From IMG/VR virus record IMGVR_UViG_3300022871_000009, positions 1 to 64,000 of that record: a stretch of 64,000 nt of DNA, one strand, 5' to 3'. Below, one piece after another: positions 3,170-63,465 of this stretch. The notes under the pieces are model-generated. The model was not told the DNA's origin, did no database searches, and worked only from the letters and a program-made list of their open reading frames with translations. Origin of the DNA: a virus. Lineage: Duplodnaviria; Heunggongvirae; Uroviricota; Caudoviricetes. The position numbers and the translations under genes are program-made. Positions within the stretch are counted from its first letter, which is position 1, and every line of letters begins with the position of its first letter.

Positions 3170-3586
3170 TTATATCAGTGTTTGTTGTGGTGAATATTCA
3201 TCCACTTTTAAATATTTCTCTCGTCTACCTTTTTGTAATCTTGACCCATTTTCATCATAGATATCCCACCATTTCTTTTCTAAAAACCTCTGCATTTCAT
3301 ATCCACCATAGCTCCAGTTCCAACCAATTTGTTTGAATAAATTAAACGGAGCTGACCACTTTTCAACATTATCCCCATCGTAAATTTCTACCACGTTACA
3401 ATTAGTTTTTTTCAATTCATCATAAACTTCCAAACTAATTCCGTATGCTTTATACTTTCTTAAAAAATGAATTGAACTACGAACGTATTTTATAAATACG
3501 CCAGTGTCAGTCAAATCTCCTACACTCACGGAACGACGCTTCTTTCCTTTGCCCAGAATGATTCTAAATTGTTTTACTACTTTCAT
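3170..3586 (-). CDS. hypothetical protein, early gene behind a consensus promoter
   Basis: ORF. Likely ATG start at 3586 (MKVVKQ...). The track shows a GTG at 3592. Confidence 0.45.
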   Translation of the reverse strand: MKVVKQFRIILGKGKKRRSVSVGDLTDTGVFIKYVRSSIHFLRKYKAYGISLEVYDELKKTNCNVVEIYDGDNVEKWSAPFNLFKQIGWNWSYGGYEMQRFLEKKWWDIYDENGSRLQKGRREKYLKVDEYSPQQTLI

Positions 3587-3597
3587 AAGCACTTACT

Positions 3598-3626
3598 ATT
3601 ATACCATACTTACTATGACTTGTCAA
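3598..3626 (-). promoter_or_regulatory. sigma70-like promoter (TTGACA-17-TATAAT) with palindromic -35 context
   Basis: Reverse complement reads CACTTGACAAGTcatagtaagtaTGGTATAAT. Same 30-mer architecture as the promoters at 8692 and 12032. Confidence 0.55.
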
Positions 3627-3629
3627 GTG

Positions 3630-3893
3630 TTAGTAAGTATCCAGATTTAATTTAGCAATTCTAGCCGCTATTGAAGCTCTTTTTCTCCAATCAGATTCAT
3701 TCTCCATTTGAACTTGAAGTATGGGGACAATGCCTCCCGCTACGGCTTCCGCTTCCATCCCAGCGGTCCGCGTACCGGAGAAAAGAGGTTTTTCAGACAA
3801 TTTAGCGTTCTCAGTCTCATTCTCAGCAGCCTCTGAGGCCTCCATTTTGGCTCTTTCAGAGGCGATAGGGTCGTAATTGGGCATAGATACCAT
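3630..3893 (-). CDS. hypothetical protein
   Basis: 87-aa ORF, acidic, Ala/Glu-rich. Confidence 0.4.
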   Translation of the reverse strand: MVSMPNYDPIASERAKMEASEAAENETENAKLSEKPLFSGTRTAGMEAEAVAGGIVPILQVQMENESDWRKRASIAARIAKLNLDTY

Positions 3894-7380: not shown

Positions 7381-7440
7381 TTACAAGAGATTACATAGAC
7401 ATTTGGAATAAATTGTTAGTTCGTAGTCATTATACCACGA

Positions 7441-7782
7441 TTAATCCTTTTTGTCAAGTTCTTCTTTCTCCTCCTTAGGAGCGGAGCGAAAAGCTTGGTT
7501 GATTTTGTTGTTAGGATTTTTGTATTCGTTCATCACCATTGACTTCAGGCTCCACAAATTTGTAATTAGAGCTCTTGGGTCAACTTTCAACTTGCCTTGC
7601 CAGAATTCATTGACTGATTTAGACAACTCATCTGTTGGCTCAAAATTGAAATATCCAACTGGATTACGCTTCTCCCCTTCTATCTGGTAGTCTACTCTGA
7701 CAATATCAAATTTAAGAGTCACGAGTGTTGTTGCTAGGTAAATGTCCCTAGTAGAAAAAGTAGTCTTTTCCTTATTTTCCAT
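7441..7782 (-). CDS. hypothetical protein
   Basis: 113-aa ORF preceded by a promoter-like motif. Confidence 0.45.
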   Translation of the reverse strand: MENKEKTTFSTRDIYLATTLVTLKFDIVRVDYQIEGEKRNPVGYFNFEPTDELSKSVNEFWQGKLKVDPRALITNLWSLKSMVMNEYKNPNNKINQAFRSAPKEEKEELDKKD

Positions 7783-7815: not shown

Positions 7816-7844
7816 ATTATAGCATAAGTCCCTATTTACTATCA
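7816..7844 (-). promoter_or_regulatory. promoter with conserved extended -10 element AGGACTTATGCTATAAT
   Basis: Reverse complement TGATAG-17-TATAAT. A 16-nt block identical to the sites at 8632, 41388 and 55114. Confidence 0.45.
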
Positions 7845-7983
7845 GATACAAGCAAGACACGAAATAGCAGATGTAGAAGCACCCTGGACGAAAAGGATTT
7901 TGTGTCTTGCTATCATTCGCTTAAAAAAGCGACGCTGTTTGCACCTTTTCTATCTCATCGTATCTTCCTTGTAGCTGGTAGTT

Positions 7984-7999
7984 GTAAAGTACATTCACC
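7984..7999. repeat. 16-bp direct repeat TGTAAAGTACATTCAC, copy 1
   Basis: Exact second copy at 8403..8418. The two copies flank the small gene 8135..8359. Confidence 0.5.
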
Positions 8000-8134: not shown

Positions 8135-8359
8135 TTATTCCTCTAGTGTTCCATCTGGATAAACATCTTCACTGCACACACAATGCCTCCAGAAAGCGTT
8201 AATACAATGACCAAAATCGTCTCTTGCCATATCTTTGACTGCTTTCTCTTGTCTCTCGTTGAGACCTATACCCTCTATTATGGTTAATATTTTTCCCTCT
8301 AAAAACTTGACTTGACCAGATGATTGGTCATAACTTAATAGTTTAGTTTTAACTTTCAT
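8135..8359 (-). CDS. hypothetical protein
   Basis: 74-aa ORF. Confidence 0.4.
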   Translation of the reverse strand: MKVKTKLLSYDQSSGQVKFLEGKILTIIEGIGLNERQEKAVKDMARDDFGHCINAFWRHCVCSEDVYPDGTLEE

Positions 8360-8402
8360 ACTTTACTTGACTTAACTTGACCCTGAATTGTAAAAGAACT
8401 AC

Positions 8403-8418
8403 TGTAAAGTACATTCAC
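8403..8418. repeat. 16-bp direct repeat TGTAAAGTACATTCAC, copy 2
   Basis: Exact match to 7984..7999. Confidence 0.5.
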
Positions 8419-8510
8419 AGACCGCACAATATACAGATAGCAGTCAGCACACCTAGGATACCCCAGGTCCACAGTACTACTCCTAAATTGCCGTCATATC
8501 TCTCTCTCAT
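8415..8510 (-). CDS. possible 31-aa hydrophobic micro-protein
   Basis: Manual translation MRERYDGNLGVVLWTWGILGVLTAICILCGL. About 120 nt downstream of the minus-strand promoter at 8632. No SD sequence. Confidence 0.2.
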   Translation of the reverse strand: MRERYDGNLGVVLWTWGILGVLTAICILCGL

Positions 8511-8631
8511 AATAAATATTATACTGTACCCCTAAAAAGGGGAGTGTAGGTCAACAACTAGTCATAACCGGCTCAGCCTATCTTCCTTTCGTTTTGTCGG
8601 ATACAGACAAATATCTACTATCTTTGACTAC

Positions 8632-8661
8632 ATTATAGCATAAGTCCTACCTAATTGTCAA
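8632..8661 (-). promoter_or_regulatory. promoter TTGACA-18-TATAAT carrying the AGGACTTATGCTATAAT element
   Basis: Reverse complement TTGACAattaggtAGGACTTATGCTATAAT. Divergent from the plus-strand promoter at 8692. Confidence 0.5.
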
Positions 8662-8691
8662 CCTGTTTTTAGACCCTGTGGATAGTAACAC

Positions 8692-8720
8692 TTGACAAGT
8701 TTTCAGTGCTATGGTATAAT
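8692..8720 (+). promoter_or_regulatory. consensus sigma70 promoter (TTGACA-17-TGGTATAAT)
   Basis: CACTTGACAAGTtttcagtgctaTGGTATAAT. Perfect hexamers, extended -10 TG, 17-nt spacer. Confidence 0.6.
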
Positions 8721-8750
8721 GTAGTTAACATTTATTCAAAAGGTCGAATC

Positions 8751-9239
8751 ATGAATAATATACTAATTCAAAAGGAGAAGGTAAAATATAAATATAAATT
8801 TATGAACAATAATACTTTGGTAGTTTCACTACCTAATGGATTGAAAATCTCAGGATTTACATCTGAATCACAAGCAATGAGAGTTGCACGTGGTGCTGAA
8901 TTATCAGAAGGTGTACCTGTAGCTATAAAGGAAAAGAAACTTGGCAGACCTGTAGGAAGTAAGTCAAAAAAGCGTAAGAAATCTTCTAGAGCGTCTTGGT
9001 CCCCAGAAGAAGCAAACTTCATCCTAGACAACCTAGACCAATCAAGCGCTTTCATGAAAAGAACGTTCCTAGCAAATAAACATACAAAAAATGCTATCGC
9101 TGCTCGTTTCTACAACATGAGACAATACATGCTAACTGGTGACGAGGCTTTGTCACGTCAACTAGATTCTTATAGCAGAAGTCGAATTAACGCCCTTAGA
9201 GAAGAAAGTCCATCTGGAGAAAAACTTCCACTGTTCTAA
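8751..9239 (+). CDS. basic DNA-binding protein with AT-hook-like motif (KKLGRPVGSKSKKRKK)
   Basis: The track ORF starts at 8706, but the promoter -10 lies inside that extension. The ATG at 8751 (MNNILIQ...) sits a proper distance from the promoter. Confidence 0.5.
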   Translation: MNNILIQKEKVKYKYKFMNNNTLVVSLPNGLKISGFTSESQAMRVARGAELSEGVPVAIKEKKLGRPVGSKSKKRKKSSRASWSPEEANFILDNLDQSSAFMKRTFLANKHTKNAIAARFYNMRQYMLTGDEALSRQLDSYSRSRINALREESPSGEKLPLF

Positions 9240-10110: not shown

Positions 10111-10332
10111 ATGAAAAACAAACTAGTTTCCTTAAATGAATTGGCAACGAAACTGAAGGTCAATAAGTCAACATTGCACTTCTATCAGCGTTCCGGTCTT
10201 ATAAAGCCTATAGAAACTTGCGGTAGAATGCACATCTTTGATGGGGCACCTACCCTAAAGAGGCTTAAGGAAATAATAAAATACAAAAAAGAAGGACTAA
10301 AATTAGAACAAATAAAAAAGAAATTGAAATGA
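10111..10332 (+). CDS. MerR-like HTH protein
   Basis: LNELATKLKVNKSTLHFYQRSGLIKP matches the MerR N-terminal HTH pattern. 73 aa. 4-bp overlap with the SNF2 gene. Confidence 0.45.
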   Translation: MKNKLVSLNELATKLKVNKSTLHFYQRSGLIKPIETCGRMHIFDGAPTLKRLKEIIKYKKEGLKLEQIKKKLK

Positions 10333-12035
10333 TAATATCCAAAAAGCCGACAACTAAATTCAAATACGAATTTGACTTTGACTTTTCTTACGATGTTCTC
10401 ACTATCTGCCGAGCTATCAAAATGAGACACGGCGCTGCCAACATGAATTTCAATGGAGGTAAATGGCGCTTTAATAATCTCGCTATCTTAGACGAACTTA
10501 AAAAAGTTTTTCCATCAATCAAAATTGATGTGTCTATGCATAATGATATGAAGCAATATAGTAGAGACAAAGAAGAGAAGCAAGACAAGATTGAAAGAGC
10601 TCATGAAATTAAAAAAGCTGTTGCTTCTGATTTGGATATTACTGGAATTAAAGGAGAACTCTACCCATATCAAAAACTAGGCGTAGAGTTCTTCATTAAT
10701 AACGGCGGACGTGGTATATTAGCTGATACAATGGGGCTTGGAAAGACTTTACAGACTCTGGCTTATATAGTGCATGCAAAGAAAAAGAAGACTATCGTAA
10801 TTTGCCCAGCGAGTGTTAAATATTCTTGGGAAAGCGAGGTCAAAAAATGGACGAAACTAAAATCAAAAGTTTTGAACAGTAAAGATTTTAGTGAGTTTAA
10901 TACTGAGGTATTTTCAGGGCATGATGTCTTTATCATAAATTACGATTTGATAAGAAAGTTTCTACCGAAACTACTTGCACTGAGGTGGGACTGCATGGTT
11001 TGTGATGAATTTCATTACATTAAAAACTCTGCGGCTCTCAGAACTAAAGCTACTAAGAAACTGGGCGGTCAGATTGAATCAATCTTACTTCTCAGTGGTA
11101 CTCCAATACTGAACAGACCAGTAGAATTGTTTAATGGATTGAACGTGTTAGAACCTACGGTGTGGAATGATTATTATCAGTACACATCAAGGTACTGTGG
11201 AGCTTATCAGGGACACTTTGGCTGGGATGCCCGTGGGGCTACTCACATAGATGAGTTGCAACAAAAAACTTCTCACTATTTCCTAAGAAGAAATAAAGAT
11301 GAAGTTTTGAGTGAGCTTCCTCCAAAAAGATTCATGGATAATCCTGTAGAGTTGGAAGCTGAAGTTCAGTCTAAATATAGATTGGCAGAAACAGCTTTCA
11401 TAAAATATTTACGAGAAGTAAAAAAGAAAAAAATATCAGAAAGTTCTGCTAACGAGCAGGCATACAAATTAGCTAGACTAAATGAACTGCGCCAATTGGC
11501 TTCAGAAGGAAAGGTCTACGCGGCCAAAGAAATCATAGAGAATGTAATTGATAATGGAGAAAAGATATTGGTTTTCTCAGCTTTCAACAAACCACTAGAG
11601 GACCTCAAAGAATACTTCGGAGATTCTGCTATAATTCTCACCGGCAAAACAAGTAGTGAAGACCGCAGAGATATCATAGAAAAATTTCAGAAAGATAAAA
11701 AAACTAAAATATTCTTAGGAGGAATCAAAAGCGCTGGTGTTGGAATAACATTAACTGCCGCTTCTAGTGTGTTGTTTGTTGACTACAGTTGGGTCCCTGC
11801 TGACCATGCTCAAGCTGTAGACAGGGCTCATAGGATTGGTCAAAAAGCTGACAGTATCTCTGTATACCAATTGTACTCAAAGGACACTATAGATGAGTAC
11901 ATGATGGAAACTATCAAACGTAAAGAGAAGATATTCAACCAACTTATTAACGGTGTTGGCAGCGAAGAAAAACAAACTAAACTGAGCATGGTCGGAGACG
12001 TAATAAAAAGTTTCGAACAGAAGTTATGCACTTGA
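10329..12035 (+). CDS. SNF2-family DNA-dependent ATPase/helicase
   Basis: Motif I ILADTMGLGKTLQ. Motif II DEFHYIKN. C-terminal helicase motifs (GGIKSAGVGITLT, VDRAHRIGQ). Confidence 0.85.
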   Translation: MIISKKPTTKFKYEFDFDFSYDVLTICRAIKMRHGAANMNFNGGKWRFNNLAILDELKKVFPSIKIDVSMHNDMKQYSRDKEEKQDKIERAHEIKKAVASDLDITGIKGELYPYQKLGVEFFINNGGRGILADTMGLGKTLQTLAYIVHAKKKKTIVICPASVKYSWESEVKKWTKLKSKVLNSKDFSEFNTEVFSGHDVFIINYDLIRKFLPKLLALRWDCMVCDEFHYIKNSAALRTKATKKLGGQIESILLLSGTPILNRPVELFNGLNVLEPTVWNDYYQYTSRYCGAYQGHFGWDARGATHIDELQQKTSHYFLRRNKDEVLSELPPKRFMDNPVELEAEVQSKYRLAETAFIKYLREVKKKKISESSANEQAYKLARLNELRQLASEGKVYAAKEIIENVIDNGEKILVFSAFNKPLEDLKEYFGDSAIILTGKTSSEDRRDIIEKFQKDKKTKIFLGGIKSAGVGITLTAASSVLFVDYSWVPADHAQAVDRAHRIGQKADSISVYQLYSKDTIDEYMMETIKRKEKIFNQLINGVGSEEKQTKLSMVGDVIKSFEQKLCT

Positions 12036-12060
12036 CAAGTTTAGAGTAATATGGTATAAT
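12032..12060 (+). promoter_or_regulatory. consensus sigma70 promoter (TTGACA-17-TGGTATAAT)
   Basis: CACTTGACAAGTttagagtaataTGGTATAAT, followed by AAAAGGTCGA as at 8737. Confidence 0.6.
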
Positions 12061-12116
12061 AGTTACATAACAAAAAGGTCGACATATAATTAATAACAGA
12101 AATAACCAAAGAAATT

Positions 12117-12737
12117 ATGTCAATATTTTCAGACGAAAATAAAGTATCTGGAAGCTGGGCTTCCTTTAAAGTAGTAGGAGACAAAGTAGAAGGTACACTT
12201 ATAGACAAGCGAACCACTTTCAATAAATTGAGTGGAAAAGACCAAATAATCTACGAGTTGAAAGACTCAGAGGATAATATAATCCTCGTTGGTGGTAAAC
12301 CTGCCGTAGATGCACAAATGAAACACGTTAGGTTAGGTCAGATTGTAGGATTTGAGTTCACAGAAGAACGTAAAGCTACAGTACCTGGTCATAGCCCTAC
12401 CAAGATTATCCAAATATTCGCCAACGTTAAAGTTGTAGACGAAGAATGGTTAGCAGTTCAAGAAGCTGCAAAAGAACTTGGTGGAACTGTCACTCAATCT
12501 CCTGCAGATGGTTCAGAGGAACCAAGTTACGAACCTGTAGAAGATAAAGTTGAAGAACCTGAAGTACCTGATTTTTCAGAAGGTGCCTCACAAGCAGAAG
12601 AAATTAATACTCTCGCAAAAGCTAAATTAGGTGCCGAAACTGATGCTGACGTACAAGCAAAAGTAATGGAGAGCACTAAACTTGCCTTTATCGAAGATAA
12701 TTATACTGCGATTCTAGAAGCTCTTAAAAAATTGTAA
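12117..12737 (+). CDS. hypothetical acidic protein, probably a highly expressed early protein
   Basis: 206 aa. The C-terminal half is very acidic (EEPSYEPVEDKVEEPEVPDFSEGASQAEE). Directly downstream of a consensus promoter. Confidence 0.5.
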   Translation: MSIFSDENKVSGSWASFKVVGDKVEGTLIDKRTTFNKLSGKDQIIYELKDSEDNIILVGGKPAVDAQMKHVRLGQIVGFEFTEERKATVPGHSPTKIIQIFANVKVVDEEWLAVQEAAKELGGTVTQSPADGSEEPSYEPVEDKVEEPEVPDFSEGASQAEEINTLAKAKLGAETDADVQAKVMESTKLAFIEDNYTAILEALKKL

Positions 12738-12738
12738 A

Positions 12739-12768
12739 CCCAAACTCAAACGACTTGTCGTTTGGGTA
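12739..12768 (+). terminator. stem-loop after the 12117..12737 gene
   Basis: CCCAAACtcAAACGACttGTCGTTTGGG inverted repeat. No clear U-tract. Confidence 0.35.
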
Positions 12769-13206
12769 GTGTCGCCCTGCCTAAGGTGGTTCCCCCTCCT
12801 TTCTGCCTGGGTAATCAGGCGATACTACTTAAACTATAATTTACTGAGTGTTGGGTTGGCTGAATAAACTCTTCGATAGGGAGTTAAAGCACAGCGAAAG
12901 TGGCATAGGAGTCATCATTAGCTGATTAGCAAGACAATTACAATTATGTAAAATGTACTATCGCGAAGAGCCTGTAAATAAACTGAATCAGGCCAGTTTC
13001 TACAAAAACACATTTTTGCTTCCTCCTAGGTTGGGTGAAGGTGTGAGGGACTGTTGGGCAAGTTCTGACTGCGTTGTCGGAAGCCCAGGTGAGCAGGGTA
13101 GGCCCTGTGTAGCCTAAATAAATAAAAGCTGAATAACGACTTGCTATGCAGGAAACCATAATCCTGTACCAAGCACTTAGTAAATTATATCTAGAAATAT
13201 TAAAGT

Positions 13207-13713
13207 ATGCCTACCGGTATCTACAAACGTAAATCATGTACATCCACAACAAAAATTAAAATAGGGAACGCCAACATAGGAAAAAAGAATGGTGTATATA
13301 AGCATGGCATGGTAAAAACAAAATTTTATAGGCATTGGAGAATAATGAAAAGTAGATGTTCTGATAAAAATAGACCGTCCTATTACAATAAGGTATCTGT
13401 TTGCAAAGAATGGACCGATTTTCTAAAATTTAAAGAAGATACACATAAATCATATATTAACCATGTAAAAATGTTTGGAGAGGCTAACACAACTCTAGAC
13501 AGAATTGATGGAAACGAAAACTATCACAAAGACAACTGTAGGTGGGCAACAAAAGAGTTGCAGGCTAATAACAGAAAAAATACGTTATTCTTTAAATTAG
13601 ATGATAAAAAATATACTATAAGAGATTTATCTAAATTAACTGGAATAACTTATAAAAATTTATTTAACAGATTGGTCGTTCACAAATGGCTAATTAGTAA
13701 AGCAATTAAATAA
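13207..13713 (+). CDS. free-standing HNH homing endonuclease (HNH_3/NUMOD-like)
   Basis: TLDRIDGNENYHKDNCRWATKELQANN matches the HNH_3 signature. Basic N-terminal region. Confidence 0.65.
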   Translation: MPTGIYKRKSCTSTTKIKIGNANIGKKNGVYKHGMVKTKFYRHWRIMKSRCSDKNRPSYYNKVSVCKEWTDFLKFKEDTHKSYINHVKMFGEANTTLDRIDGNENYHKDNCRWATKELQANNRKNTLFFKLDDKKYTIRDLSKLTGITYKNLFNRLVVHKWLISKAIK

Positions 13714-14755: not shown

Positions 14756-14920
14756 ATGGCTAGAAAGATATACAACAAAATAATGTCTCTGAAAGCACTT
14801 CCATGTGCTCTTGGTTTGCACAGGTGGGTAAAACTTTCTATCCCAAAAGTTGGACAGAATAGCAGAGTGCATAAAGGTCGATGTACACATATCTGCTCAA
14901 AATGTTATAAATTAAAATAA
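14756..14920 (+). CDS. possible 54-aa Cys-rich small protein, not in the ORF track
   Basis: Manual translation MARKIYNKIMSLKALPCALGLHRWVKLSIPKVGQNSRVHKGRCTHICSKCYKLK. Fills the gap between the sbcD-like gene and the SPFH gene. Confidence 0.3.
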   Translation: MARKIYNKIMSLKALPCALGLHRWVKLSIPKVGQNSRVHKGRCTHICSKCYKLK

Positions 14921-25223: not shown

Positions 25224-25249
25224 AAGAAGAATATTATTCTTCTTTTTTT
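25224..25249. terminator. bidirectional rho-independent terminator between convergent genes
   Basis: AAGAAGAATA/TATTCTTCTT stem flanked by A-run and T-run. Overlaps the last codons (KKEE) of the minus-strand 1798-aa gene. Confidence 0.5.
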
Positions 25250-28200
25250 GATGAAAGTCCAGCAGTCATAGCCCCTAGAGTTCCCAATAACATGGTATAG
25301 AGAGGTGTTTTTCCAGAGTACCATTTTTTATCTGCACCTTGTCTCATGTTGTTTTTTACATCTTGTATAAACATGTAACTGGCTTTCTTTGCAAGTATCC
25401 TTGCTTCTTCCTTTGTTACGTCTTTTTGAGTTAGCGCTTCTAAGAACCATGTTAGTGAATTGAATTGTACTTCCTCAAGCTCTCTAGAAGTTTTCACAAA
25501 AGCAGAGTCTCCAGTGGACTCTCCAATTTCAGCACGAATAACCATATCATTTGTGTTCTCCCATGACTGTCTATCTTCAAGCCACTTTCTTTCTATTTTT
25601 TCGGAAACCCAATCAGGCAAAAATTCTTTTTTACCTGTCTCATCCCATCTATCTATAGCAGCTTTATCACTTCCTGAAAGTTTCTTGTATTCTACACCAA
25701 GTTTTTCTAACTCCGTTTTATTCTGTGGACCTGCAGTAAATTTACGAACAGCTTCATACATGTCGAACTGCTCAATTTTACTTTGTGCTTGTTTTTCAGT
25801 CATCTTGATATTTCTTCTCTTTGCATCTTTCAACATATCAGAGACCTGTTTTTCTTTGGCTGTAAACCCACCTCTTGCATATGTCCCAACCTGAATTCTA
25901 GCATTAGGATATGTTTCTTTTATACTTTTAACAAAGTTCTTCAAAACTTTAGGCAATTTATCAAATCTCTCTAGATTTACTAGTTGGCTAAGTTGAGAAA
26001 ATTCTTTAGTTACTGAAATATCATCCTTATGAAGAGTCCCGAGGGGTTTATCTATTTCAATATGTCTCCATGTTTCTTTTTTCCCACCTCTATCTAACCA
26101 TTTGTACCAGTCACTTATCGAATCTTTGATTCCCTTGAAGAACTCACTACCCATATCTTCTCCTTTGTAAAGTTGTCTACCAGAAGCAATGACTTCTTTT
26201 ATTTCAGCAGCTTGTTTATCAGGACTAACAGACTTTTTGATATTTTTTATCAACAACTCATTTTCATTGATTATATCATTTAATGTATAGTCACTTTTTT
26301 TCTTTCCGCCATATTTAGTTCTGAAATTTTTAGCAACATCGCTCTTACTGTTCGCTGTCTCTACTTTTTTACCAAGTTCTGATAACTGCTTATATAACAG
26401 GTTCTCTCTTTTCTCATTTATTCTAAGCATTTCTGTTGGAATAGCAGACTTGTTGGAGCTACCGGCTGGTTTTACAAATACAGTCATTCTTTCATCTGTT
26501 TTCCTAAATTCTACCTTATACTTTTTCTTCTGTTGTTCTGGTAACCAATTATCACCTAATCCTCCAGAGTACTCAAGGTCAGTCATTTCGAATGGTTTAA
26601 GGTACTCTTTCTGCTCTTGTAAATGGTTTTTTAATTGTTTTCTAAGTGTCTCTCTCTCAGCAAAATCAAGAATTGCTTTCTCAGTCTTATTCCCGGGAAT
26701 ATAGCGTGTTGTCACTGGAATGTCATCAACATTTTTGTTCATTATCTCAATTAACCTTTCATACTTCTGCTCAGTACTCGCCTTATTTTTTCCACCGAAC
26801 AATGTGTCCTCTGCCTTTACAAGCTTTTCTTTAATTAGTGAAAACTTGTTGTTGTATTCTTGCTTAGCTTTTTCTTTGGTCAATGTAGGAAGCTTTTCCC
26901 AATTTTGAGTTTTTTCTTCAAAAGCTTTTTTGAATTTCTTTCCAGCTGATTCTTCAGGAACTGCTATATCAACAGGATTTTTATCCTTAGTTTTGTTAAA
27001 TTTTTCAAATCTTTCTTTAGAAGATGTGATGGCTTTTTTTGCAATACTTCTAGATTCTTCTCCAGTTGCTTTTGTCTTTAAATTAAAAGCAGATTTCGGT
27101 CTTTTTTTCCAATCAACAATTCTTTCTGAAAATATATGGTCCATTGTCCCATCTTCTTTTCTTATTAACAACTTTCCACCTTGAGCCTCTTGGTTGCTTA
27201 AAATAGCTACTTCCTCATCAGATATCACTTTTTCTTTTTTTCTATCTACTTTGCCAGGGACGTACCCAAGAACTTCTCCAGAGGTTTCTGATATCGTTCC
27301 TTTTGAATCTAAACTCTTATGTCTAAGAGTAATAGTTTCTCCTGTTTTAAATGTCCCTTTCTTAGCCAACTCATCCACAAATACAGTTTCGTATCTTTTG
27401 GTTTTAAAGTTCAAACCTCTCTCTGGATTAACTATTCTTTCCGATAACAAACTAAAGTCATTCGTTTGATATTGTTTCTGTGCTTCTTTTAGAGATACCA
27501 CAGATACAATTGATTTCTTTCCATCTTTTTCAACTTGATATTTTGTTGCTATGTCTTCACCAGTTTTAAATCTAGAGGACTTTGTGGTTTCTCCATTATT
27601 TTTGTGGAAAACTACATATTGGTCTTTTCCTGTTTTATCTCCGTTTTGTGTTAATTTAGGAATTACATCACTCTTGTATTCATTCTTTATTTCTCTACCA
27701 GACGCTATAGCCTTTTTTGCAGTCTCTTTCGCTTCAACCTTCTTCTCTAATGCTTTTTTTGGTGTCACAAAACGCTCTTTAGCACCAACTATAGCTTTTT
27801 TCGCCGTCTCCTTGGCCTTCTTCTCAACCACCTTGGCTGTTTCTTTAACTGCATCCATCTTCTTTGAGAATCGTTCCTTGAATGGAATATCTTGCATAGG
27901 AAGTTGTGGTTGCTCTGGTTGTATATTTTGTGCTATCTCTCCTGTAGCCTGTCTTGTTGGTCGTCCTTGTAATTCAGCATCGTTAAACAAATACATGTTA
28001 TCTAATTTTGCTCTTTCTTCAGCAGGTAATTTTCTTAAATAACCATCTCTTTTCATTATCAAAGTATAATATCCGTCACCATTGCTATTTAGAACTCCCT
28101 CTCTTTTTAATTTTGTTATTGTATTTACGACATCTTTAATTCTAATATTTTTAGCGTTTTTGAGCATAGTTGTAGCTGTGGCTTCATTCATGTAAGACCC

Positions 28201-30630
28201 AAAAAGATTAGTCAACTTTTCATTTGCTAAACGAGGATTATCTACTAATAGTGTCTCTCTAAATTCTCTAAGGAAAGCATTGAAGAGTGCTTTACCATCC
28301 CCTTCTAGTTCGTTTGTAGGTGCAGATGGAAGACCATCTTTACCTGTATATACCTCTCTGTCAGTAGGAAGATTTTCCATGGCCGCTTTAACTTTACTTT
28401 TTTTAGTTGTAGCGTATTTTTCATTTAAGGTCTTTGCCATCTTCCAACTTTCTGCACTTGTCTGAAGCATTACGTACGGCTCAGGAGTAAATGGTCCGTC
28501 TGTTCTTATTGTTGTAATCCTAGCAGGCAAAACTTCATAACCGCTCTCTTTCATGGCGTTTACAACTGCCTCATTGTTAAATTTAGGTTCTAGTGGGGGC
28601 ATGTTCTCCAGCTTTGGATTTTTTTTGTGGTAGTTATTCATCTTCACAATTCCTTCTTCTGTAGGCCACATCCCTAATTGATATATTTCACCTTCTTTTG
28701 TCCCAAACCATTGTATATTTTTTTCGTTATACTTATTATTTTTTTGTCTATTCAGTGATAACGGTCCTCTTACTTTTTTATTTATAGCTTTGACAAACTC
28801 TGGTTCGTTTCTTATTAATCCAAAAATCATGTCACCCGATTGGCCACCAGCATTTTTATAGGCAATAATATCTTTCGCTGTAGCCGGGTTTGTATGAGAT
28901 GCCACACCTGTATTTAGTATTGTTCCAGTCGGTTCACCTTTATATTCCCCTACACTAGAAGGTTCACGTTTAAATGCGTTGAATCCTTTGGTAAAATTAG
29001 CAGCATTACTTGGTATAGCTTGGAGCTCTGCTTCTGTTAGTTTATTTGTCCTTTGAAATATAGATTTTAAGTCTTTGAATTCTTCAAGTAGTTTTTCTTC
29101 TTTTCCTAAACCACCTTTATAAAGTTGTCTGCCAGAAATAATAACTTTTCCTATCTCAGTTGCTTGTTCAGTTGGACCGACATTATTTCTGATAGTTTTT
29201 ATTAAAGCCTGATTTTCGTTTACTATATCGTCTAGTGTAGGTTTAATCTTCGATGTTATACCATATTTATGTCTAAAATTTCTAGCTATGTTGTTAGTAG
29301 CTTCTTCCATTCTTTCTGTATATTTAACACGACCAATACCATGCATGCCTACCATAAATGCAGTATTAGTAAGCGCTTCCATTGGTGTTGCACCTTCCAA
29401 TGAGGATAAAATCCACGCACCAATTGCTAAGTCAGTATATCCTTTCAAGCTTTGCCCTGGCAAAGAAAGCATCCCACCCCAAGCAGCGTCTTTAAAAAAT
29501 CTTTGAACTCTAGCTTCAAAACCTTTTTCTTCTTGTTTAGAAAGTTGACCCATTGTAGTGAACACACCTGTGTTTGCAAGTGCTTTCAAAGCAGTATTCC
29601 TCTCTAGGGTTATTCCTCCAGCTTTAAACAATTCTCCTGTTTGCCCTAATTTTTTTAACCAAGCTGGTGCTCTTTTAGCTGTCTGCAATAATTCAGGAGT
29701 TGTCTTACCTGCAGTTGCCATCTTCCTAAGTCCCAAAAATGTTTTAGCTCCTTTAACTCCTTTTTCAAATCCTAAAGTGGCCTTGGCAGCTTTTCCAAGC
29801 AATCCATAACCTAAGACAAAAGAGGCAAGAGAGCCAACGACTTCCCCACCAACTCTGGCTAGGCCAGCTCTTTTTGCTTCTTCATCCGTCTTATAAGCTT
29901 CTTTATGGCCTTCAGCAGGTATATACCCTAGACTTATTCCAGATGCAACGCCTTGCGCTGCTTCACCAACCACACCCTTAGGACCTTCTTTGAATGATTT
30001 CCACCATTCTTTTATTCCTACTTTTTGTGGTTTTAGCCACTCGGAGGCTTTATTTTCCGCAGTAGCCAAATCAGTTTGACCTTTTTCATCTAGATATATG
30101 TCATCTACATTTCTGTCTTCCCAGTTAAGTTGCATTACACGTGCCTCATTTATTGTAATTTTATCGTTATAATATAAAGCTTGTGCTACAGCACCGACTT
30201 TAGTTTTTATTGCATGGTCAGCTTTTTTCAATACTACTTTGTTTTCGTTGCTATCTTCTCCCCCAGCCCACAAAGGTACAGTATGGTCTACTTCGTAGTT
30301 CCAACTTGGTAAACCACCTCTTAACATCGCAGTATTTGCTGGATTATCTTCTCGCCACTCTTTTATCAAATTTTGAGATTTACCTTTTTCAGTAACGAAT
30401 TTTCCACCTGACAGAGGTTTAACTTCAATATCTTCTATCGGTACTTCTTTTTGCATGGACCTTATATCCAAATTAAAAGGATTCTTCTGTGCATCTGCTT
30501 CTGTACCCAAAGACCCAGCGGATGAATTGCCGCTAGGCTGTGTATCAAAACCATACCTAGTCTTGATTTCTTGGAAATCAGTATTTAATCTACCGAGGAT
30601 TTCTGATAAATCTGGTTGTTTAAATTCCAT
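25234..30630 (-). CDS. 1798-aa Lys-rich virion-associated protein (tape-measure/ejection-protein candidate) with HNH-like motif and internal duplication
   Basis: HNH-like VDHTVPLWAGGEDSNENKVVLKKADH near the N-terminus. About 60-aa duplicated segment (DDIVNENQALIKTIRNN...GRQLYKGG versus NDIINENELLIKNIKKS...GRQLYKGE). Sits in the structural gene block. Confidence 0.5.
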   Translation of the reverse strand: MEFKQPDLSEILGRLNTDFQEIKTRYGFDTQPSGNSSAGSLGTEADAQKNPFNLDIRSMQKEVPIEDIEVKPLSGGKFVTEKGKSQNLIKEWREDNPANTAMLRGGLPSWNYEVDHTVPLWAGGEDSNENKVVLKKADHAIKTKVGAVAQALYYNDKITINEARVMQLNWEDRNVDDIYLDEKGQTDLATAENKASEWLKPQKVGIKEWWKSFKEGPKGVVGEAAQGVASGISLGYIPAEGHKEAYKTDEEAKRAGLARVGGEVVGSLASFVLGYGLLGKAAKATLGFEKGVKGAKTFLGLRKMATAGKTTPELLQTAKRAPAWLKKLGQTGELFKAGGITLERNTALKALANTGVFTTMGQLSKQEEKGFEARVQRFFKDAAWGGMLSLPGQSLKGYTDLAIGAWILSSLEGATPMEALTNTAFMVGMHGIGRVKYTERMEEATNNIARNFRHKYGITSKIKPTLDDIVNENQALIKTIRNNVGPTEQATEIGKVIISGRQLYKGGLGKEEKLLEEFKDLKSIFQRTNKLTEAELQAIPSNAANFTKGFNAFKREPSSVGEYKGEPTGTILNTGVASHTNPATAKDIIAYKNAGGQSGDMIFGLIRNEPEFVKAINKKVRGPLSLNRQKNNKYNEKNIQWFGTKEGEIYQLGMWPTEEGIVKMNNYHKKNPKLENMPPLEPKFNNEAVVNAMKESGYEVLPARITTIRTDGPFTPEPYVMLQTSAESWKMAKTLNEKYATTKKSKVKAAMENLPTDREVYTGKDGLPSAPTNELEGDGKALFNAFLREFRETLLVDNPRLANEKLTNLFGSYMNEATATTMLKNAKNIRIKDVVNTITKLKREGVLNSNGDGYYTLIMKRDGYLRKLPAEERAKLDNMYLFNDAELQGRPTRQATGEIAQNIQPEQPQLPMQDIPFKERFSKKMDAVKETAKVVEKKAKETAKKAIVGAKERFVTPKKALEKKVEAKETAKKAIASGREIKNEYKSDVIPKLTQNGDKTGKDQYVVFHKNNGETTKSSRFKTGEDIATKYQVEKDGKKSIVSVVSLKEAQKQYQTNDFSLLSERIVNPERGLNFKTKRYETVFVDELAKKGTFKTGETITLRHKSLDSKGTISETSGEVLGYVPGKVDRKKEKVISDEEVAILSNQEAQGGKLLIRKEDGTMDHIFSERIVDWKKRPKSAFNLKTKATGEESRSIAKKAITSSKERFEKFNKTKDKNPVDIAVPEESAGKKFKKAFEEKTQNWEKLPTLTKEKAKQEYNNKFSLIKEKLVKAEDTLFGGKNKASTEQKYERLIEIMNKNVDDIPVTTRYIPGNKTEKAILDFAERETLRKQLKNHLQEQKEYLKPFEMTDLEYSGGLGDNWLPEQQKKKYKVEFRKTDERMTVFVKPAGSSNKSAIPTEMLRINEKRENLLYKQLSELGKKVETANSKSDVAKNFRTKYGGKKKSDYTLNDIINENELLIKNIKKSVSPDKQAAEIKEVIASGRQLYKGEDMGSEFFKGIKDSISDWYKWLDRGGKKETWRHIEIDKPLGTLHKDDISVTKEFSQLSQLVNLERFDKLPKVLKNFVKSIKETYPNARIQVGTYARGGFTAKEKQVSDMLKDAKRRNIKMTEKQAQSKIEQFDMYEAVRKFTAGPQNKTELEKLGVEYKKLSGSDKAAIDRWDETGKKEFLPDWVSEKIERKWLEDRQSWENTNDMVIRAEIGESTGDSAFVKTSRELEEVQFNSLTWFLEALTQKDVTKEEARILAKKASYMFIQDVKNNMRQGADKKWYSGKTPLYTMLLGTLGAMTAGLSSKKEE

Positions 30631-41387: not shown

Positions 41388-41417
41388 ATTATAGCATAAG
41401 TCCTCTTCTTTCTATCA
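41388..41417 (-). promoter_or_regulatory. promoter TGATAG-18-TATAAT with the AGGACTTATGCTATAAT element
   Basis: Reverse complement TGATAGaaagaagAGGACTTATGCTATAAT, 22 nt upstream of the 463-aa gene. Overlaps the stop region of the giant gene. Confidence 0.45.
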
Positions 41418-44400
41418 CTAAAATCCATAGTATCCTCCTCCAAAGACTCCTTGTGTGGATATTCCTCCACGTCTTCCTAGTGTTTCTAAACCACCAGTTA
41501 TCTCCATGTCTTCTATATAGAAACTTATTGTCGATGTGCTGGAACTGGTAGAACTAGATGTACTTGATGAAGTTGATGAACTAGTAGAACTTGAGGTGCT
41601 TGAAGAAGTCGAGCTAGTTGAGCTAGATGTACTTGAACTTGTAGAGCTAGATGTGGATGAACTTGTAGAGCTAGATGTGGATGAACTTGTAGATGACGTA
41701 CTAGAAGATGTACTAGAGCTTGTAGAACTAGAGGTAGAGCTAGATGTGGATGAACTTGTAGAACTAGAGGTAGAGCTAGATGTGGATGAACTTGTAGAAC
41801 TGGAAGTAGAGCTAGATGTGGATGAACTTGTACTGGATGACGTACTAGAAGATGTTGAGCTAGATGTTGAACTTGATGTAGAACTAGAAGTTGATGAGCT
41901 TGTGCTAGAAGAAGTACTAGACGATGTTGAGCTAGATGTCGAACTAGAAGTACTAGATGATGTGCTAGAGCTAGTAGAACTGGATGTACTAGATGATGTA
42001 GATGAAGTACTAGAACTAGTAGAACTAGAAGTACTCAAACTTGTAGAACTAGATGTTGAGGAAGTGCTTGAACTAGTAGAGCTAGAAGTAGAAGAACTAG
42101 TACTAGAGGTAGAACTAGAAGTGCTTGAACTAGTAGAGCTAGAAGTAGAAGAAGTAGAACTGGATGTGGAACTAGAAGTAGAAGAGCTTGTAGAACTTGT
42201 ACTAGATGATGTACTAGAGCTAGTAGAGCTAGAAGTAGAAGAGCTTGTAGAACTTGATGTACTAGAAGAAGTACTAGAGCTAGTAGAGCTAGAAGTAGAA
42301 GAGCTTGTAGAACTTGATGTACTAGAACTGGTAGAGGAGCTAGTAGAGCTTGATGTACTAGAACTAGTAGAGCTTGATGTACTAGAACTAGTAGAGCTTG
42401 ATGTTGATGATGATGTACTAGAACTAGTACTAGAACTAGTTGACGATGATGTTGAAGAACTAGTAGAACTTGATGTGCTAGAACTAGTGGAACTTGACGT
42501 GCTAGAACTAGTGCTAGAGCTAGTTGATGATGATGTAGATGATGAAGTACTACTAGACGTGCTTGAACTAGTAGAACTAGTAGAACTCGATGTACTTGAA
42601 GTTGACGAACTAGTAGAACTAGAAGTAGATGAACTAGTAGAACTAGAAGTAGATGAAGTTGTTGTTTCCGCTAACCTTCTCTTGTAATTCCCCCATGTTA
42701 AATCTCCTACATTACCATCAGGAATAAAACTGTCTTTAACTGTAGAACTGAATCCAGAATGCTGATAGACGTTACACCCAACGGGAATAAATATTGAGTA
42801 ATTAGTAGAATAAAAATCATTTTTGTCTAAAGTGAGGCCACCAGGCAAGGTAGAAGGAGTATTAAATGTGTCTGCTATTGTAGAAGTATAACCAGAGTGT
42901 CTATATACTTTATCCGACCCTCCGTCGATACTGAATAAGCGAGCAACATTTACTGTAAAACCTTTTGGCGAGCTGCTAGGAGAAGAAAAACTATCACTGA
43001 CTGTAGATGAAAAACCATTGTGAACGTATATTTTGTCAGTACCATTATCTATACTATAGAAATTTGTATAATCAATAGTTACACCTTGAGGACTGTCACT
43101 AGGCGAAGAAAAACTGCTAAGTATAGTAGAAGTGAAACCAGAATGTCTGTATATAACATCGGAAGAACTATCTCCACTATAGACATCTCCCAAGAATGTA
43201 AGGCCATATGGAGATGTACTTGGACTACTGAAACTATCAATTACAGTGGAAGAGAACCCAGAATATTTATAAATTTTGTCATCAGAATACTGAACGCCCA
43301 TCAAATTCTCGTATAGTGTGGTTGTTGTAGAAGTACTAGAAGAAGTAGAACTAGAAGTACTAGACGAAGTAGATGATGTACTAGAACTGGTAGAACTAGA
43401 TGTTGATGAGGTTGTCTCAAACCTAGCGTCACCGCCCCAGGCGATACCACCTAAGTTCCCAGTTGGCTGAGCAAAACTATCTAAAATTGTAGAAGTAAAT
43501 CTGTTATATTTGACAAAATCAGACACTGAACTTCCATAGGTATCATTTGCATCTCGTGCAACGCTAGAACGGACAGTAGCAAATGAATCAGAAATTGTTG
43601 AAGTAAAACCTGAATGGCGATATATTCCATATTCAACAGAAAGAGTAGCTCCACCTGAATACAGTCTATAAAGATTACTCTCTAATCCAGAAGGATATGG
43701 TATTATTGTTCCGAAACTATCTAAAATTGTAGAAGTAAATCCTGAATGTTTATAAATTTTAGCTGTATTTTTATCTACACTATATAAATCACCAGGTTCA
43801 GTCATAGTTAATTTTACATACCGAGTCGATGGCGAAGAGAAACTATCAATCATTGTAGTAGAAAAACCAGAGTGTTTATAAATTATATTTAATCCAGCAT
43901 CCCCACTGTACATTAATTTATCTTTCCAAGAAAGTCCAGCAGGTATGTTTGCTGATGGCACCGTAAAACTATCTAAAATAGTAGAACTAAAACCAGAATA
44001 TCTAAAAAATAAATCACCATAAACATGCACTGAATAAAAGTCGTCATTCAATAGTGTTGTACTAGAGGAAGTAGAACTAGATGTGGAACTAGTAGAAGAA
44101 CTAGTAGAGCTAGAAGTAGAAGAACTTGTCGAACTCGATGTTGATGATGAAGTAGACGAAGATGTAGATGATGTTGAGCTAGAAGTACTAGAAGAAGTCG
44201 AACTAGTTGAGCTAGATGTTGAAGAACTAGTAGAACTTGTGGTAGTTATTGCTAATCTTTTTACATAGTTCTCCCAGGCAAGACCAAAATTATTTGTTGC
44301 TGTTCTGAACACATCTAAAATTGTAGAACTAAATCCTGAATGTTTATATGCTTTTCTGTAACTAGCACTTCGTGGGTTAAAAATAGTGCTGTAAAAGTCT

Positions 44401-47400
44401 ATACTATCAGTTGTAAACCCACCAGGCCGTGTCCCTGGAGCAGCGAAACTATCTGATATCGTTGATGTGAATCCTGAATGTCTATACATTCTATCACTAC
44501 CGTCAATCAGACTAAACAACCTATACTTATTTACCGCTATATCTCTAGGATTGATAGCTTCAGCCGCAAAACTATCAGAAATTGTTGAAGAAAAACCGCT
44601 GTGGATGTAAATTTTTTCAGTGGTCAAGTCAGTGCTATACATCCTGTCTCTATCCGCTTCTAAGCCGTATGTTTCACTAGCAGCAGCAGCAAAATTATCA
44701 AGTAGTGTAGAACTAAATCCTGAAAAGTGATAAATAAGGTTGGTATTGTAGTTAGTACTATATAAATCTTTATTAAATGCTACACCTAACGAGCCAATTG
44801 CACTAACACCCCCTAAGCTCTCTAAAATAGTAGAACTAAATCCTGAATATTTGTAGATAATAGAAGGGGATATCGCTATCAAATTATCATCATACAATAT
44901 AGAGGTTGAACTTGATGTAGATGAACTTGTAGAACTTGATGTTGATGAGGTTGAAGAACTTGTGCTTGAACTTGTAGAACTTGATGTTGATGAAGTACTA
45001 GAACTTGTTGAACTAGAGGTTGAGCTAGATGTGCTAGAAGATGTACTAGAAGAAGTAGAACTAGAAGTACTAGAAGTACTAGAACTAGTAGAACTAGAAG
45101 TACTAGAACTTGTTGAACTAGAAGTTGATGATGAAGTTGATGAACTAGTAGAACTAGTAGAACTTGATGTACTAGAAGAAGTAGAAGAACTAGTTGAAGA
45201 AGTACTAGAAGAAGTAGAACTTGATGTACTAGAAGAAGTACTAGAAGTAGAAGAACTAGTTGAAGAAGTAGAAGTTGAACTAGATGTACTTGATGTACTA
45301 GAAGAAGTTGAGCTTGAAGTAGATGAGCTCGTTGAAGAAGTACTAGAACTTGTAGAACTAGATGTTGATGAACTTGTTGAAGATGTACTAGAACTTGTTG
45401 AACTAGAAGTACTAGAAGTGCTAGACGAAGTTGATGAACTTGTAGAACTAGAAGTAGATGAACTTGTAGAACTAGAAGTAGATGATGAAGTACTCGATGA
45501 GGTACTAGAACTTGTTGAACTAGAAGTACTAGAAGAAGTTGAACTAGATGTTGATGAACTTGTAGAACTAGAAGTAGATGAACTTGTAGAACTAGAAGTA
45601 GATGAACTTGTAGAACTAGAAGTACTTGAAGAAGTACTGGAAGTAGACGAACTAGTCGAACTAGATGTAGAAGATGAAGTTGAACTAGAAGTTGACGAAC
45701 TTGTTGAACTAGAAGTAGAAGAACTGGTAGAAGAAGTACTAGAACTTGTGCTTGAACTTGTAGAACTAGAAGTGCTTGAACTTGTAGAACTAGAAGTGCT
45801 TGAACTTGTTGAACTAGAAGTTGAACTTGTACTTGATGACGTACTAGAAGACGTACTAGAACTTGTAGAGCTAGATGTGCTTGATGACGTACTAGAGCTA
45901 GTTGAACTAGATGTAGAACTAGAAGTTGATGAGCTCGTGCTAGAAGAAGTAGAACTAGAAGTAGATGAACTTGTAGAACTAGTAGAACTAGAAGTAGATG
46001 AGCTCGTGCTTGATGATGTACTAGAAGACGTACTAGAACTTGTTGAACTAGATGTTGAAGAACTTGTACTTGATGATGTAGATGAACTAGTACTAGAAGA
46101 AGTAGAACTTGATGTAGAAGAACTTGTAGAAGATGTTGTGCTAATTTCTCTACTCCAAATATTATCCCATTCTACTCCTAATAGATATTCAGGTGTACCA
46201 TCGAATGAATCCATTATAGTAGTACTAAATCCTGCGTGTTTATAGGAATAGGCACTATTACCATCTGTAGTATATATGTGATACCCATCAAATGTTAAAC
46301 CAGCAATATCTGGAGTGACAGCTGCCATGCTATTTAAGACAGTAGAACTAAAACCAGAATGTTTATATACTTTTTCTGTTGCATCGTCAGCGGAATAAAT
46401 ATTTTTTCCGTCTAATGTTATATCTAACGAACCACTACTAGGAGTTGAGAAACTGTTTAAAATTGTAGAACTAAAACCAGAATGCCTATATAAGACATCG
46501 CTGTCTATATCTCCAGAATAAATTCTATCGTCTCCCCAAGTTAACCCCCACGGTTTAATTGAAGGAGAAGAAAAACTATCTGAAACAGTTGAACTAAAAC
46601 CAGAATGTTTAAATATTCTATTAAGACCGACATCAGATGTATAGGAATCTTCTCCATCAGAAGTAACGCCAAAACCATACGAAGATGGGGAACTAAAACT
46701 ATCAGTAATTGTGGATGAAAAACCTGAATATTTGAATACCTCTGTGTTCCAGTAGTATCCTATTCCAATATAATTATTTGTTTCTAATCTTCCACCATAA
46801 TCCATGTAGTCGATGCCAGAACCTTGGTTGGCTACACCTGTAAAGCTATCCAAAACAGTAGATGTAAATCCAGAATGTTTGTAGAATTCGTCAGGAGATT
46901 GCTCAGCGGTAATAAAATGTTGGCCAGTGTAAGTAAGTCCTGTACGTGAGCCAACTGCTGCGAAACTCTCTAAGATTGTTGATGTAAATCCAGAATGTTT
47001 GTAAACTTTATCTATGCCTGTATCTGTACTATATAAGTCAGTTGCATCGTAGGTTAAATCGTATGGGTTCAAATTTGGACTAGAAAAACTATCACTAATC
47101 GTAGATGAGTAACCGCTGTGTTTATAAATTTGGTCTGATACACCGTCTGTGCTATATAATGTATCTTTTTGAACTGTCAAACCTCTAGGGTCAGCAGATG
47201 GTGATGCAAAACTATCTAAAATTGTAGATGTAAATCCAGAATGTTGATATATATATCCTGCCAAATCTCCTGACAAAATATATTTGCTATCCCATGTTAC
47301 ACCACGAGGAGCAGTACTTGGAGTTGAAAAACTATCTACTACTGTAGAACTGAATCCTGAATATTTGTATACCTTACTACTAATAGCGTTATCATCAATC

Positions 47401-55113: not shown

Positions 55114-55145
55114 ATTATAGCATAAGTCCTTATCTTCTCGTCTAC
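55114..55145 (-). promoter_or_regulatory. promoter-like site with the AGGACTTATGCTATAAT element
   Basis: Reverse complement ...gagaagatAAGGACTTATGCTATAAT. -35 is weak. Confidence 0.4.
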
Positions 55146-63402: not shown

Positions 63403-63465
63403 ATTTCATTTTATTTACTCTTTTTCCTTCTGTATTATACCTCAAAAAACGTGTTTTGTCAAGTT

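Follow-up and report, generated by a model that had tools for sequence, protein, structure and literature searches.

A clade-wide early promoter type with an invariant palindromic -35 element in an uncultivated tailed phage

The phage and its early region

The window, the whole 64,000-nucleotide stretch of DNA analysed here, begins with genes that run in two directions. Minus-strand genes from 8359 down to 245 include those for a DUF5659 protein, a RepO-like protein, a Prim-Pol/DnaB primase-helicase, an epimerase and a Fic protein; the plus-strand genes from 8751 onward encode an AT-hook protein, a family-2 glycosyltransferase (GT2), a 73-aa MerR-family protein, an SNF2 helicase and an acidic 206-aa protein, with further genes for an Mre11-like nuclease, RuvC and an SMC/Rad50-like protein. 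The gene content of both strands indicates an early or replication-recombination region, whose two arms diverge from a control region at about 8360-8750. A large block of minus-strand genes at about 25-63 kb encodes an endolysin-domain protein, proteins of 3664 and 1798 aa, and glycosyl- and methyltransferases.

The phage is assigned to an uncultivated clade with genomes of about 98 kb and an SU10-like capsid; the gene for an SU10-type major capsid protein lies just past the right edge of the window, and an identical SNF2 protein was found on contigs of up to 98.6 kb. No close cultured relative was returned by megablast among phage records, and the best protein-level match to an isolate reaches about 33% identity, in one helicase. 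The host search gave MAG matches scattered over unrelated taxa, no tRNA genes were found, and an Rfam scan of the window gave no match. Contigs from several independent samples and assemblies match the window at 100% identity for up to 21.7 kb (L144-L148, L364 and L365, compared with positions 1-22000), and the phage population appears to be clonal across samples; strain microdiversity is uninformative as a test of selection, since all strain contigs are identical to the window.

About 470 nt after the acidic gene (12738-13206) hold no convincing ORF; the HNH endonuclease gene that follows (13207-13713) has no counterpart in any relative fetched and is probably a mobile insertion. The two large minus-strand ORFs, of 3664 codons (41418-52412) and 1798 codons (25234-30630), have no PHROG match, and the GC skew at 40-52 kb has the opposite sign to that of the other minus-strand blocks.

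Promoters of the window and the motifs beside them

The 32-nt pattern CACTTGACAAGT-N11-TGGTATAAT occurs three times in the window with zero mismatches (type A; Table 1); it has 0 matches in 100 dinucleotide-preserving shuffles, which together with Markov-1 simulations rule out a chance origin. A sequence-only reading of this DNA had described three near-identical cores, each a textbook sigma70 promoter with an extended -10 and with its -35 hexamer inside an 11-bp palindrome; its coordinates ran from the -35 to the -10 hexamer. The pattern is matched exactly at all three sites, and the shared core begins 3 nt further upstream. The promoter description is well supported: all three sites match both hexamers at 12/12, have a 17-nt spacer and carry TGG ahead of the -10, they are intergenic and co-oriented with the genes they precede, and the promoter is kept at orthologous positions in relatives. 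The palindrome is likewise as described; ACTTGACAAGT is an 11-bp palindrome that holds the -35 box and is centred on -32, and its perfect form ACTTGNCAAGT is found at the three type-A sites and nowhere else in the window. The same reading named the 3170 gene, the AT-hook protein and the acidic protein as the genes downstream, which is borne out. It named an equal frequency of the motif inside coding regions as a refutation; this does not hold, as there are 0 copies in gene bodies, with two overlapping the last codons of the upstream gene. It had also placed the three genes in a probable immediate-early set, but three other promoters of the window are equally perfect and a further type exists, so that the sequence does not single these genes out. 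No further type-A copy is present in the 10 kb to the right of the window or the 0.6 kb to its left.

The leftward type-A site begins 1 nt past the stop codon (3630-3632) of an 87-aa gene. The site upstream of 8751 is the rightward half of a divergent pair, and is predicted to drive the AT-hook, GT2, MerR-like and SNF2 genes. The site directly after the SNF2 gene is predicted to drive the acidic 206-aa gene; the TGA stop codon of SNF2 (12033-12035) is the TGA within the TTGACA of this promoter, as it is in relatives such as L059, so that the coding sequence ends inside the promoter.

Across the whole window there are six perfect TTGACA-N17/18-TATAAT sites (12/12) and zero at 11/12, where Markov-1 simulations give an expectation of 0.13 and 2.5 sites, respectively; this bimodal distribution is a signature of selected promoters. 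All six are intergenic or lie on the last codons of the upstream gene, and each points at the next gene. The three that were absent from the sequence-only reading, 7457-7429, 8661-8632 and 63462-63434, are all on the minus strand. Two of these are of the generic TTGACAAAA kind (type B): the first is predicted to drive a 135-aa gene, the RepO-like gene and the primase-helicase, and the last lies upstream of a 477-aa glycosyltransferase-like gene and a cluster of glycosyl- and methyltransferase genes. The remaining site (type C) is the leftward half of the divergent pair, back to back with the rightward type-A promoter at 8692, and the two -35 boxes are 30 bp apart. Type C is marked by the exact 16-mer GGACTTATGCTATAAT, which occurs four times in the window, always on the minus strand, where no exact copies are expected; every copy lies between genes ahead of a minus-strand gene, a good -35 is missing from three of the four, and two fall in the large minus-strand block. 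This family, too, was absent from the sequence-only reading. The 16-mer is also found in the relative L369, with GACTTGTGnTATAAT variants in L058 and L061. Type C may represent a different temporal class.

Table 1. Promoters, associated motifs and first downstream genes in the window.
Feature	Position	Strand	Description
Type-A promoter	3598..3629	-	-35 3626-3621 in palindrome 3618-3628; 17-nt spacer; TGG + -10 3603-3598
Type-A promoter	8689..8720	+	palindrome 8690-8700; -35 8692-8697; -10 8715-8720
Type-A promoter	12029..12060	+	palindrome 12030-12040; directly after SNF2
Type-B perfect promoter	7429..7457	-	gaacTTGACAaaa ... cgTGgTATAAT; overlaps last codons of DUF5659 gene
Type-B perfect promoter	63434..63462	-	gaacTTGACAaaa, without TG
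Type-C promoter	8632..8661	-	perfect -35, 18-nt spacer, TTGACA ... GGACTTATGCTATAAT
Type-C promoter	7816..7845	-	CTGATA-18-GGACTTATGCTATAAT (16-mer at 7816-7831); upstream of DUF5659 gene
Type-C 16-mer GGACTTATGCTATAAT	41388..41403	-	no good -35; gap between 3664-aa ORF and 463-aa gene
Type-C 16-mer GGACTTATGCTATAAT	55114..55129	-	no good -35; upstream of 107-aa gene
Type-C 16-mer GGACTTATGCTATAAT	8632..8647	-	within type-C promoter 8632..8661
Gene	3170..3592 (alternative start 3586)	-	138-140 aa; first gene after promoter 3626
AT-hook protein gene	8751..9239	+	162 aa, carries GRPVGSKSKKRKK; first gene after promoter 8692
Acidic protein gene	12117..12737	+	206 aa, ATG 12117; first gene after promoter 12032
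9-mer AAAGGTCGA	8739..8747	+	AT-hook leader; at Shine-Dalgarno distance: AAAGG, 8 nt, ATG 8751
9-mer AAAGGTCGA	12074..12082	+	acidic-gene leader, 34 nt before ATG
9-mer AAAGGTCGA	14873..14881	+	gap between Mre11-like nuclease and Band_7 genes, 47 nt before start codon
AGTTATGCAC	12022..12031	+	one-mismatch counterpart of AGTTATCCAC at the post-SNF2 promoter

Downstream of both plus-strand type-A promoters lies the 9-mer AAAGGTCGA, which had been placed about 15 nt after them; the exact distances are 18 and 13 nt after the -10. The window holds three exact copies, all plus-strand and intergenic, and a rough expectation for a 9-mer in 128 kb is ~0.5. It is kept in the orthologous post-SNF2 leaders of L054 and L057, though the surrounding leader sequences differ, and the third copy has a counterpart in L054 at the same nuclease/Band_7 junction (L054 14815). 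On this record the 9-mer is considered to be a real element, conserved in this sub-clade. A coding role (K-G-R) is excluded at 12074, where an in-frame stop precedes, and no common RNA fold was found around the copies. The third copy has no consensus promoter upstream and lies just after a terminator-like hairpin at 14794-14809. The 9-mer also partly resembles the Spo0A box (TGTCGAA).

A second motif is found next to the -35. The DnaA-box-like TTATCCAC(A), often AGTTATCCACAG, adjoins -35 boxes in L037, L058, L059, L060, L066, L067, L068, L074 and L369; 13 of the 33 TTATCCAC copies in relatives are no more than 40 bp from a -35, against an expectation of about 0.7, and there are two fixed registers, either abutting the -35 or separated from it by a 10-nt gap. 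At the post-SNF2 promoter the DnaA-box-like AGTTATCCAC abuts the -35 in L059 and L068. The window is otherwise poor in DnaA boxes, with a single TTATNCACA overall and a TTATCCACA-type box at a -35 only as the one-mismatch AGTTATGCAC.

Conservation in related phages

The SNF2 protein has more than 1000 metagenomic homologues; related loci, labelled L plus a number, were gathered from viral and metagenome collections, a genome collection and exact-protein look-ups. They have a common layout, in which a leftward promoter precedes the DUF5659 gene, a divergent gap follows, a rightward promoter leads into GT2, MerR-like and SNF2 genes, and a second rightward promoter stands after SNF2. Both rightward promoters are kept in relatives whose SNF2 proteins are 38-62% identical and whose spacers and flanks have diverged, and they repeatedly read (c/t/g)ACTTGACAAGT; the post-SNF2 promoter is positionally conserved in at least 10 related genomes. 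Homologues of the AT-hook protein are found in L054 and L062 only, and the acidic protein is kept in 11 related loci, with other genes replacing it in some. At the level of sequence and comparison, the sites are shown to be genuine promoters for the host primary-sigma RNA polymerase, of a clade-wide type with -35 TTGACA, a 17-bp spacer, a TRTG-type extended -10 and TATAAT; type A heads the predicted rightward early operon of the clade and is placed to restart transcription after the SNF2 gene.

The 26 loci examined (360 kb) contain 31 copies of the palindrome ACTTGNCAAGT, spread over 17 genomes, where a composition-based chance estimate is ~0.4. The palindrome always forms the -35 of a promoter with a -10 at 16-18 bp downstream, 29 of the 31 matching the -10 at 5/6 or better, and no copy away from a promoter was found in the 26 loci; as every copy has the central A, every copy contains TTGACA. 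The palindrome flanks are as invariant as the hexamers (31/31), and at -28/-27 they differ from the generic optimum. AC is the upstream dinucleotide in 26 of 26 clade promoters that have TTGACAAGT and a 17-bp spacer, and in ~56% of the other perfect promoters of those genomes. Conservation runs asymmetrically into the spacer and the -16 region, as AGT-n-TTTAG and TRTG. The leftward promoter after DUF5659 corresponds to the 7457 site of the window, and most of the same genomes have the generic TTGACAAA/AAT kind there; promoter type is thus tied to genomic position, and this link is conserved.

Phage promoters outside the clade have other flanks. Of 102 distinct generic CACTTGACA...TGGTATAAT promoters in the viral collection, 54% have AAN as the following triplet and ~6% have AGT, the preferred form being TTGACAAA. 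The dinucleotide AC precedes TTGACAAGT in 24% of 104 distinct viral cases and TTGACAAAT in 25% of 133 (Fisher p = 1.0), so a general coupling of AC with GT in phage promoters is absent; AC is merely the commonest upstream dinucleotide, equally frequent before AGT and AAT, and the 100% coupling is specific to the clade. The full 32-nt pattern has 53 exact matches in the viral collection, from roughly 15-18 unrelated phage families, among which the relatives of the window are L006/L054 and L037 only. A literature search for the 11-mer gave unrelated matches only.

The positions of start codons bear on where these promoters fire. Where an ATG opening an ORF of 40 aa or more follows the -10 of a clade promoter, the distance is exactly 6 nt in six cases and 8 nt in three, with 0-2 cases at each of the other distances from 0 to 29 nt; examples include L059 4689, L062 11701, L071, L072, L368 2281 and L370 4354. 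Transcription usually starts 7 nt after the -10, so an ATG at the predicted +1 implies leaderless mRNAs, and only firing at the predicted place makes sense of the 6- and 8-nt spacing. At promoter 3626 of the window a GTG lies 5 nt and an ATG (3586) 11 nt after the -10, and the mRNA is predicted to be near-leaderless. Many other gene starts have no Shine-Dalgarno sequence; this feature, together with the ATG at +1, may be a clue to the host.

Possible roles of the palindromic -35 element

The flanks of the -35 are invariant, off the generic optimum, specific to position and found beside perfect generic promoters, which points to a constraint other than basal recognition by the polymerase; the palindrome is, on this comparative evidence, under selection. 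The reading preferred here, given a probability of about 0.45, is that the palindrome is an operator for a probably dimeric factor that sits over the -35. The two bases on each side that complete ACTTGACAAGT would have no role in basal polymerase recognition and would instead form the site of this factor, which would compete with sigma region 4 for the -35. Since the promoter needs no activator, a dimeric factor at this position would most simply be a repressor; type-A promoters would then be switched, most likely shut off, independently of type B (TTGACAAAA) and type C (GGACTTATGCTATAAT). The sequence-only reading had also proposed an operator for a dimeric regulator; the dyad over the -35 that it relied on is upheld throughout the 17 genomes, while no cognate protein was found to complete the proposal. 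Repressor operators over -35 elements are known, examples being that of the ribbon-helix-helix protein CopG on pMV158 Pcr and the lambda-type operators; the likeness is a short dyad on the -35 of a strong promoter, where a bound protein would block sigma region 4, and the difference is that no repressor and no additional or cooperative sites were found here. The palindrome is never seen away from a promoter, which means that auxiliary operators are absent. Its half-sites are 6 bp apart centre to centre, a spacing that is unusual for helix-turn-helix dimers.

The same promoters may instead carry a palindrome that has no protein partner, with AC and AGT tuning the binding or kinetics of the polymerase and the flanks kept by selection on strength and by copy-correction between promoter copies, the symmetry being a by-product; this could well be the explanation, although it is held somewhat short of even odds. 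TTGACA, with the generic A at -29, already supplies three of the five symmetric pairs. TTGACAA by itself makes a 7-bp palindrome, and no dinucleotide is more frequent upstream in generic phage promoters than AC (24-25%). This leaves GT at -28/-27 as the one special feature, and the probability that it completes the symmetry by chance is 1/16. The palindrome always stands in one register on a -35 and never alone, and conservation reaches on into the spacer and the -16 region without regard to the symmetry, which would be expected of a whole-promoter type. Spacers are shared among the copies of a genome, with three near-identical in L068 and three identical in L071, and no regulator was found. 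An extra consensus is also seen in the early promoters of T4 (PMC2988021), and bases adjacent to the -35 alter promoter strength in B. subtilis, where randomising the 4 nt next to the -35 has a strong effect (PMC6940355). Against this, equally perfect promoters with the generic TTGACAAA flank in the same genomes indicate that GT is dispensable for the host polymerase; AGT is avoided in generic phage promoters (~6%), invariance at the level of the hexamers in all 31 copies exceeds that of a usual tuning position, and type identity follows genomic position from one genome to another. These points favor the operator, and a wider version of it, in which the palindrome serves a factor shared by the clade and types A, B and C form a three-type promoter code that times the programme by host polymerase alone, with the DnaA-box-like AGTTATCCACAG at the -35 in relatives coupling early phage transcription to the host replication initiator, is rather doubtful as a whole.

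Three other proposals are less probable. The 73-aa MerR-like protein (10111-10332) has a bona fide MerR-family DNA-binding domain (Pfam MerR_1, 4.6e-11; PDB matches to MerR, MtaN and TipAN) and its gene stands directly upstream of SNF2 in most relatives that cover the position, so it might be considered the regulator and the sites MerR-type promoters; a MerR-family protein is encoded in the operon, and the dyad is near the -35, as at MerR-regulated promoters. Such promoters have a spacer of 19-20 bp with the dyad inside it, whereas the sites here combine a 17-bp spacer with a dyad whose centre falls in the -35, and L368 (AGT) and L058 (TAT) have nearly the same recognition helix, with no covariation; the gene keeps a fixed place against SNF2, abutting or overlapping it, which suggests that the protein acts with the helicase instead, and the assignment as regulator is very unlikely. 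MerR-like and DUF5659 proteins are both present among relatives with and without the palindrome, and a search for homologues of the HTH/zinc-ribbon protein among relatives gave a single weak match. It is still harder to credit that the palindrome is a -35 shared by two back-to-back promoters that fire in opposite directions: the palindrome after SNF2 in L368 (11675-11726) does have a perfect TATAAT on both strands, 18 and 17 bp away, but a reverse -10 of at least 5/6 is present at 3 of 31 palindrome sites, against a background of 4.4%, and at 0 of the 3 window sites. Lastly, the similarity of the sites might come mainly from mobile promoter cassettes, in which the promoter is a patch of homology for swapping the downstream gene and its sequence is homogenised by recombination, as in the PeSL cassettes of T4-type phages (PMC2839356), where a repeated consensus early promoter also stands at variable-gene junctions. 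At two of the three window sites the repeated ~32-nt promoter stands at a junction beyond which the relatives carry other genes: no relative fetched has a homologue of the gene that follows promoter 3626, and the post-SNF2 promoter is followed by the acidic protein in the window, L054 and L057, by a 60-aa ORF in L058, by a Zn-ribbon ORF in L059 and by another family in L062, L137 and L065. Copies within one genome are also more alike than copies between genomes, spacers included. As the main explanation, however, cassettes are improbable, though well ahead of the two preceding proposals: the stem-loop that defines a PeSL is missing, with no terminator-like hairpin next to any of the three type-A sites and an 11-nt palindrome whose 1-nt loop cannot fold; the shared stretch is ~32 nt rather than about 100; there are three copies per genome against about 50 PeSLs; and recombination leaves the invariance of AC and GT across 17 diverged genomes unexplained. 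Exchange at these junctions is compatible, as a side effect, with both an operator and a tuned promoter.

Strong early promoter families are a known class in phages, and the feature added here is the clade-wide invariant palindrome on the -35. The early promoters of T4 (Pe), described as 'über' promoters with UP, -35, TGn and -10 elements, are similar in combining multiple near-perfect host sigma70 elements, TGn included, with an extra consensus; their use is the immediate capture of host polymerase, and they stand ahead of many small genes whose function is unknown (PMC2988021). They number dozens in T4 against 3 to 6 here, where the extra consensus is an 11-bp palindrome on the -35; in this phage no polymerase modifier, Alt-like or other, was found. 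If the palindrome is an operator, it would be a clade-wide switch acting on the -35, and a short site that is invariant in 17 genomes would be a useful handle for finding the regulator; if it is not, it provides a clean natural example of -35 flanking bases under selection at the level of the hexamers. For the early region of a phage clade without a cultured relative, the result is a well-supported promoter map, with three promoter types and a leader 9-mer, all conserved, together with near-leaderless starts.

The AT-hook protein was guessed from its sequence to be a Myb-like regulator, for which no family or fold support was obtained: it has no Pfam match at E <= 5 and no PDB sequence match, and its single-sequence AlphaFold model (pLDDT 60) has no Foldseek match below E = 0.1. 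The MerR-like gene (10111-10332) overlaps the start of SNF2 (ATGA, 10329), and its arrangement suggests that the two form a functional pair.

The control region itself contains several repeats. Runs of ACTTN pentamers at 8305-8317 and 8360-8382 (ACTTGACTTGACC; ACTTTACTTGACTTAACTTGACC) lie at and just upstream of the start of a 74-aa gene (8359-8135, minus); on the coding strand they read CAAGT TAAGT CAAGT AAAGT ATG, in which the half-site of the palindrome is reused. An exact 16-nt direct repeat, TGTAAAGTACATTCAC, has one copy in each of the two non-coding stretches of the region, at 7983-7998 and 8403-8418, a distance of 420 bp, and a 15-nt inverted repeat that is 93% complementary lies at 7851-7865/7897-7911; both the direct and the inverted repeat could be origin or regulatory elements.
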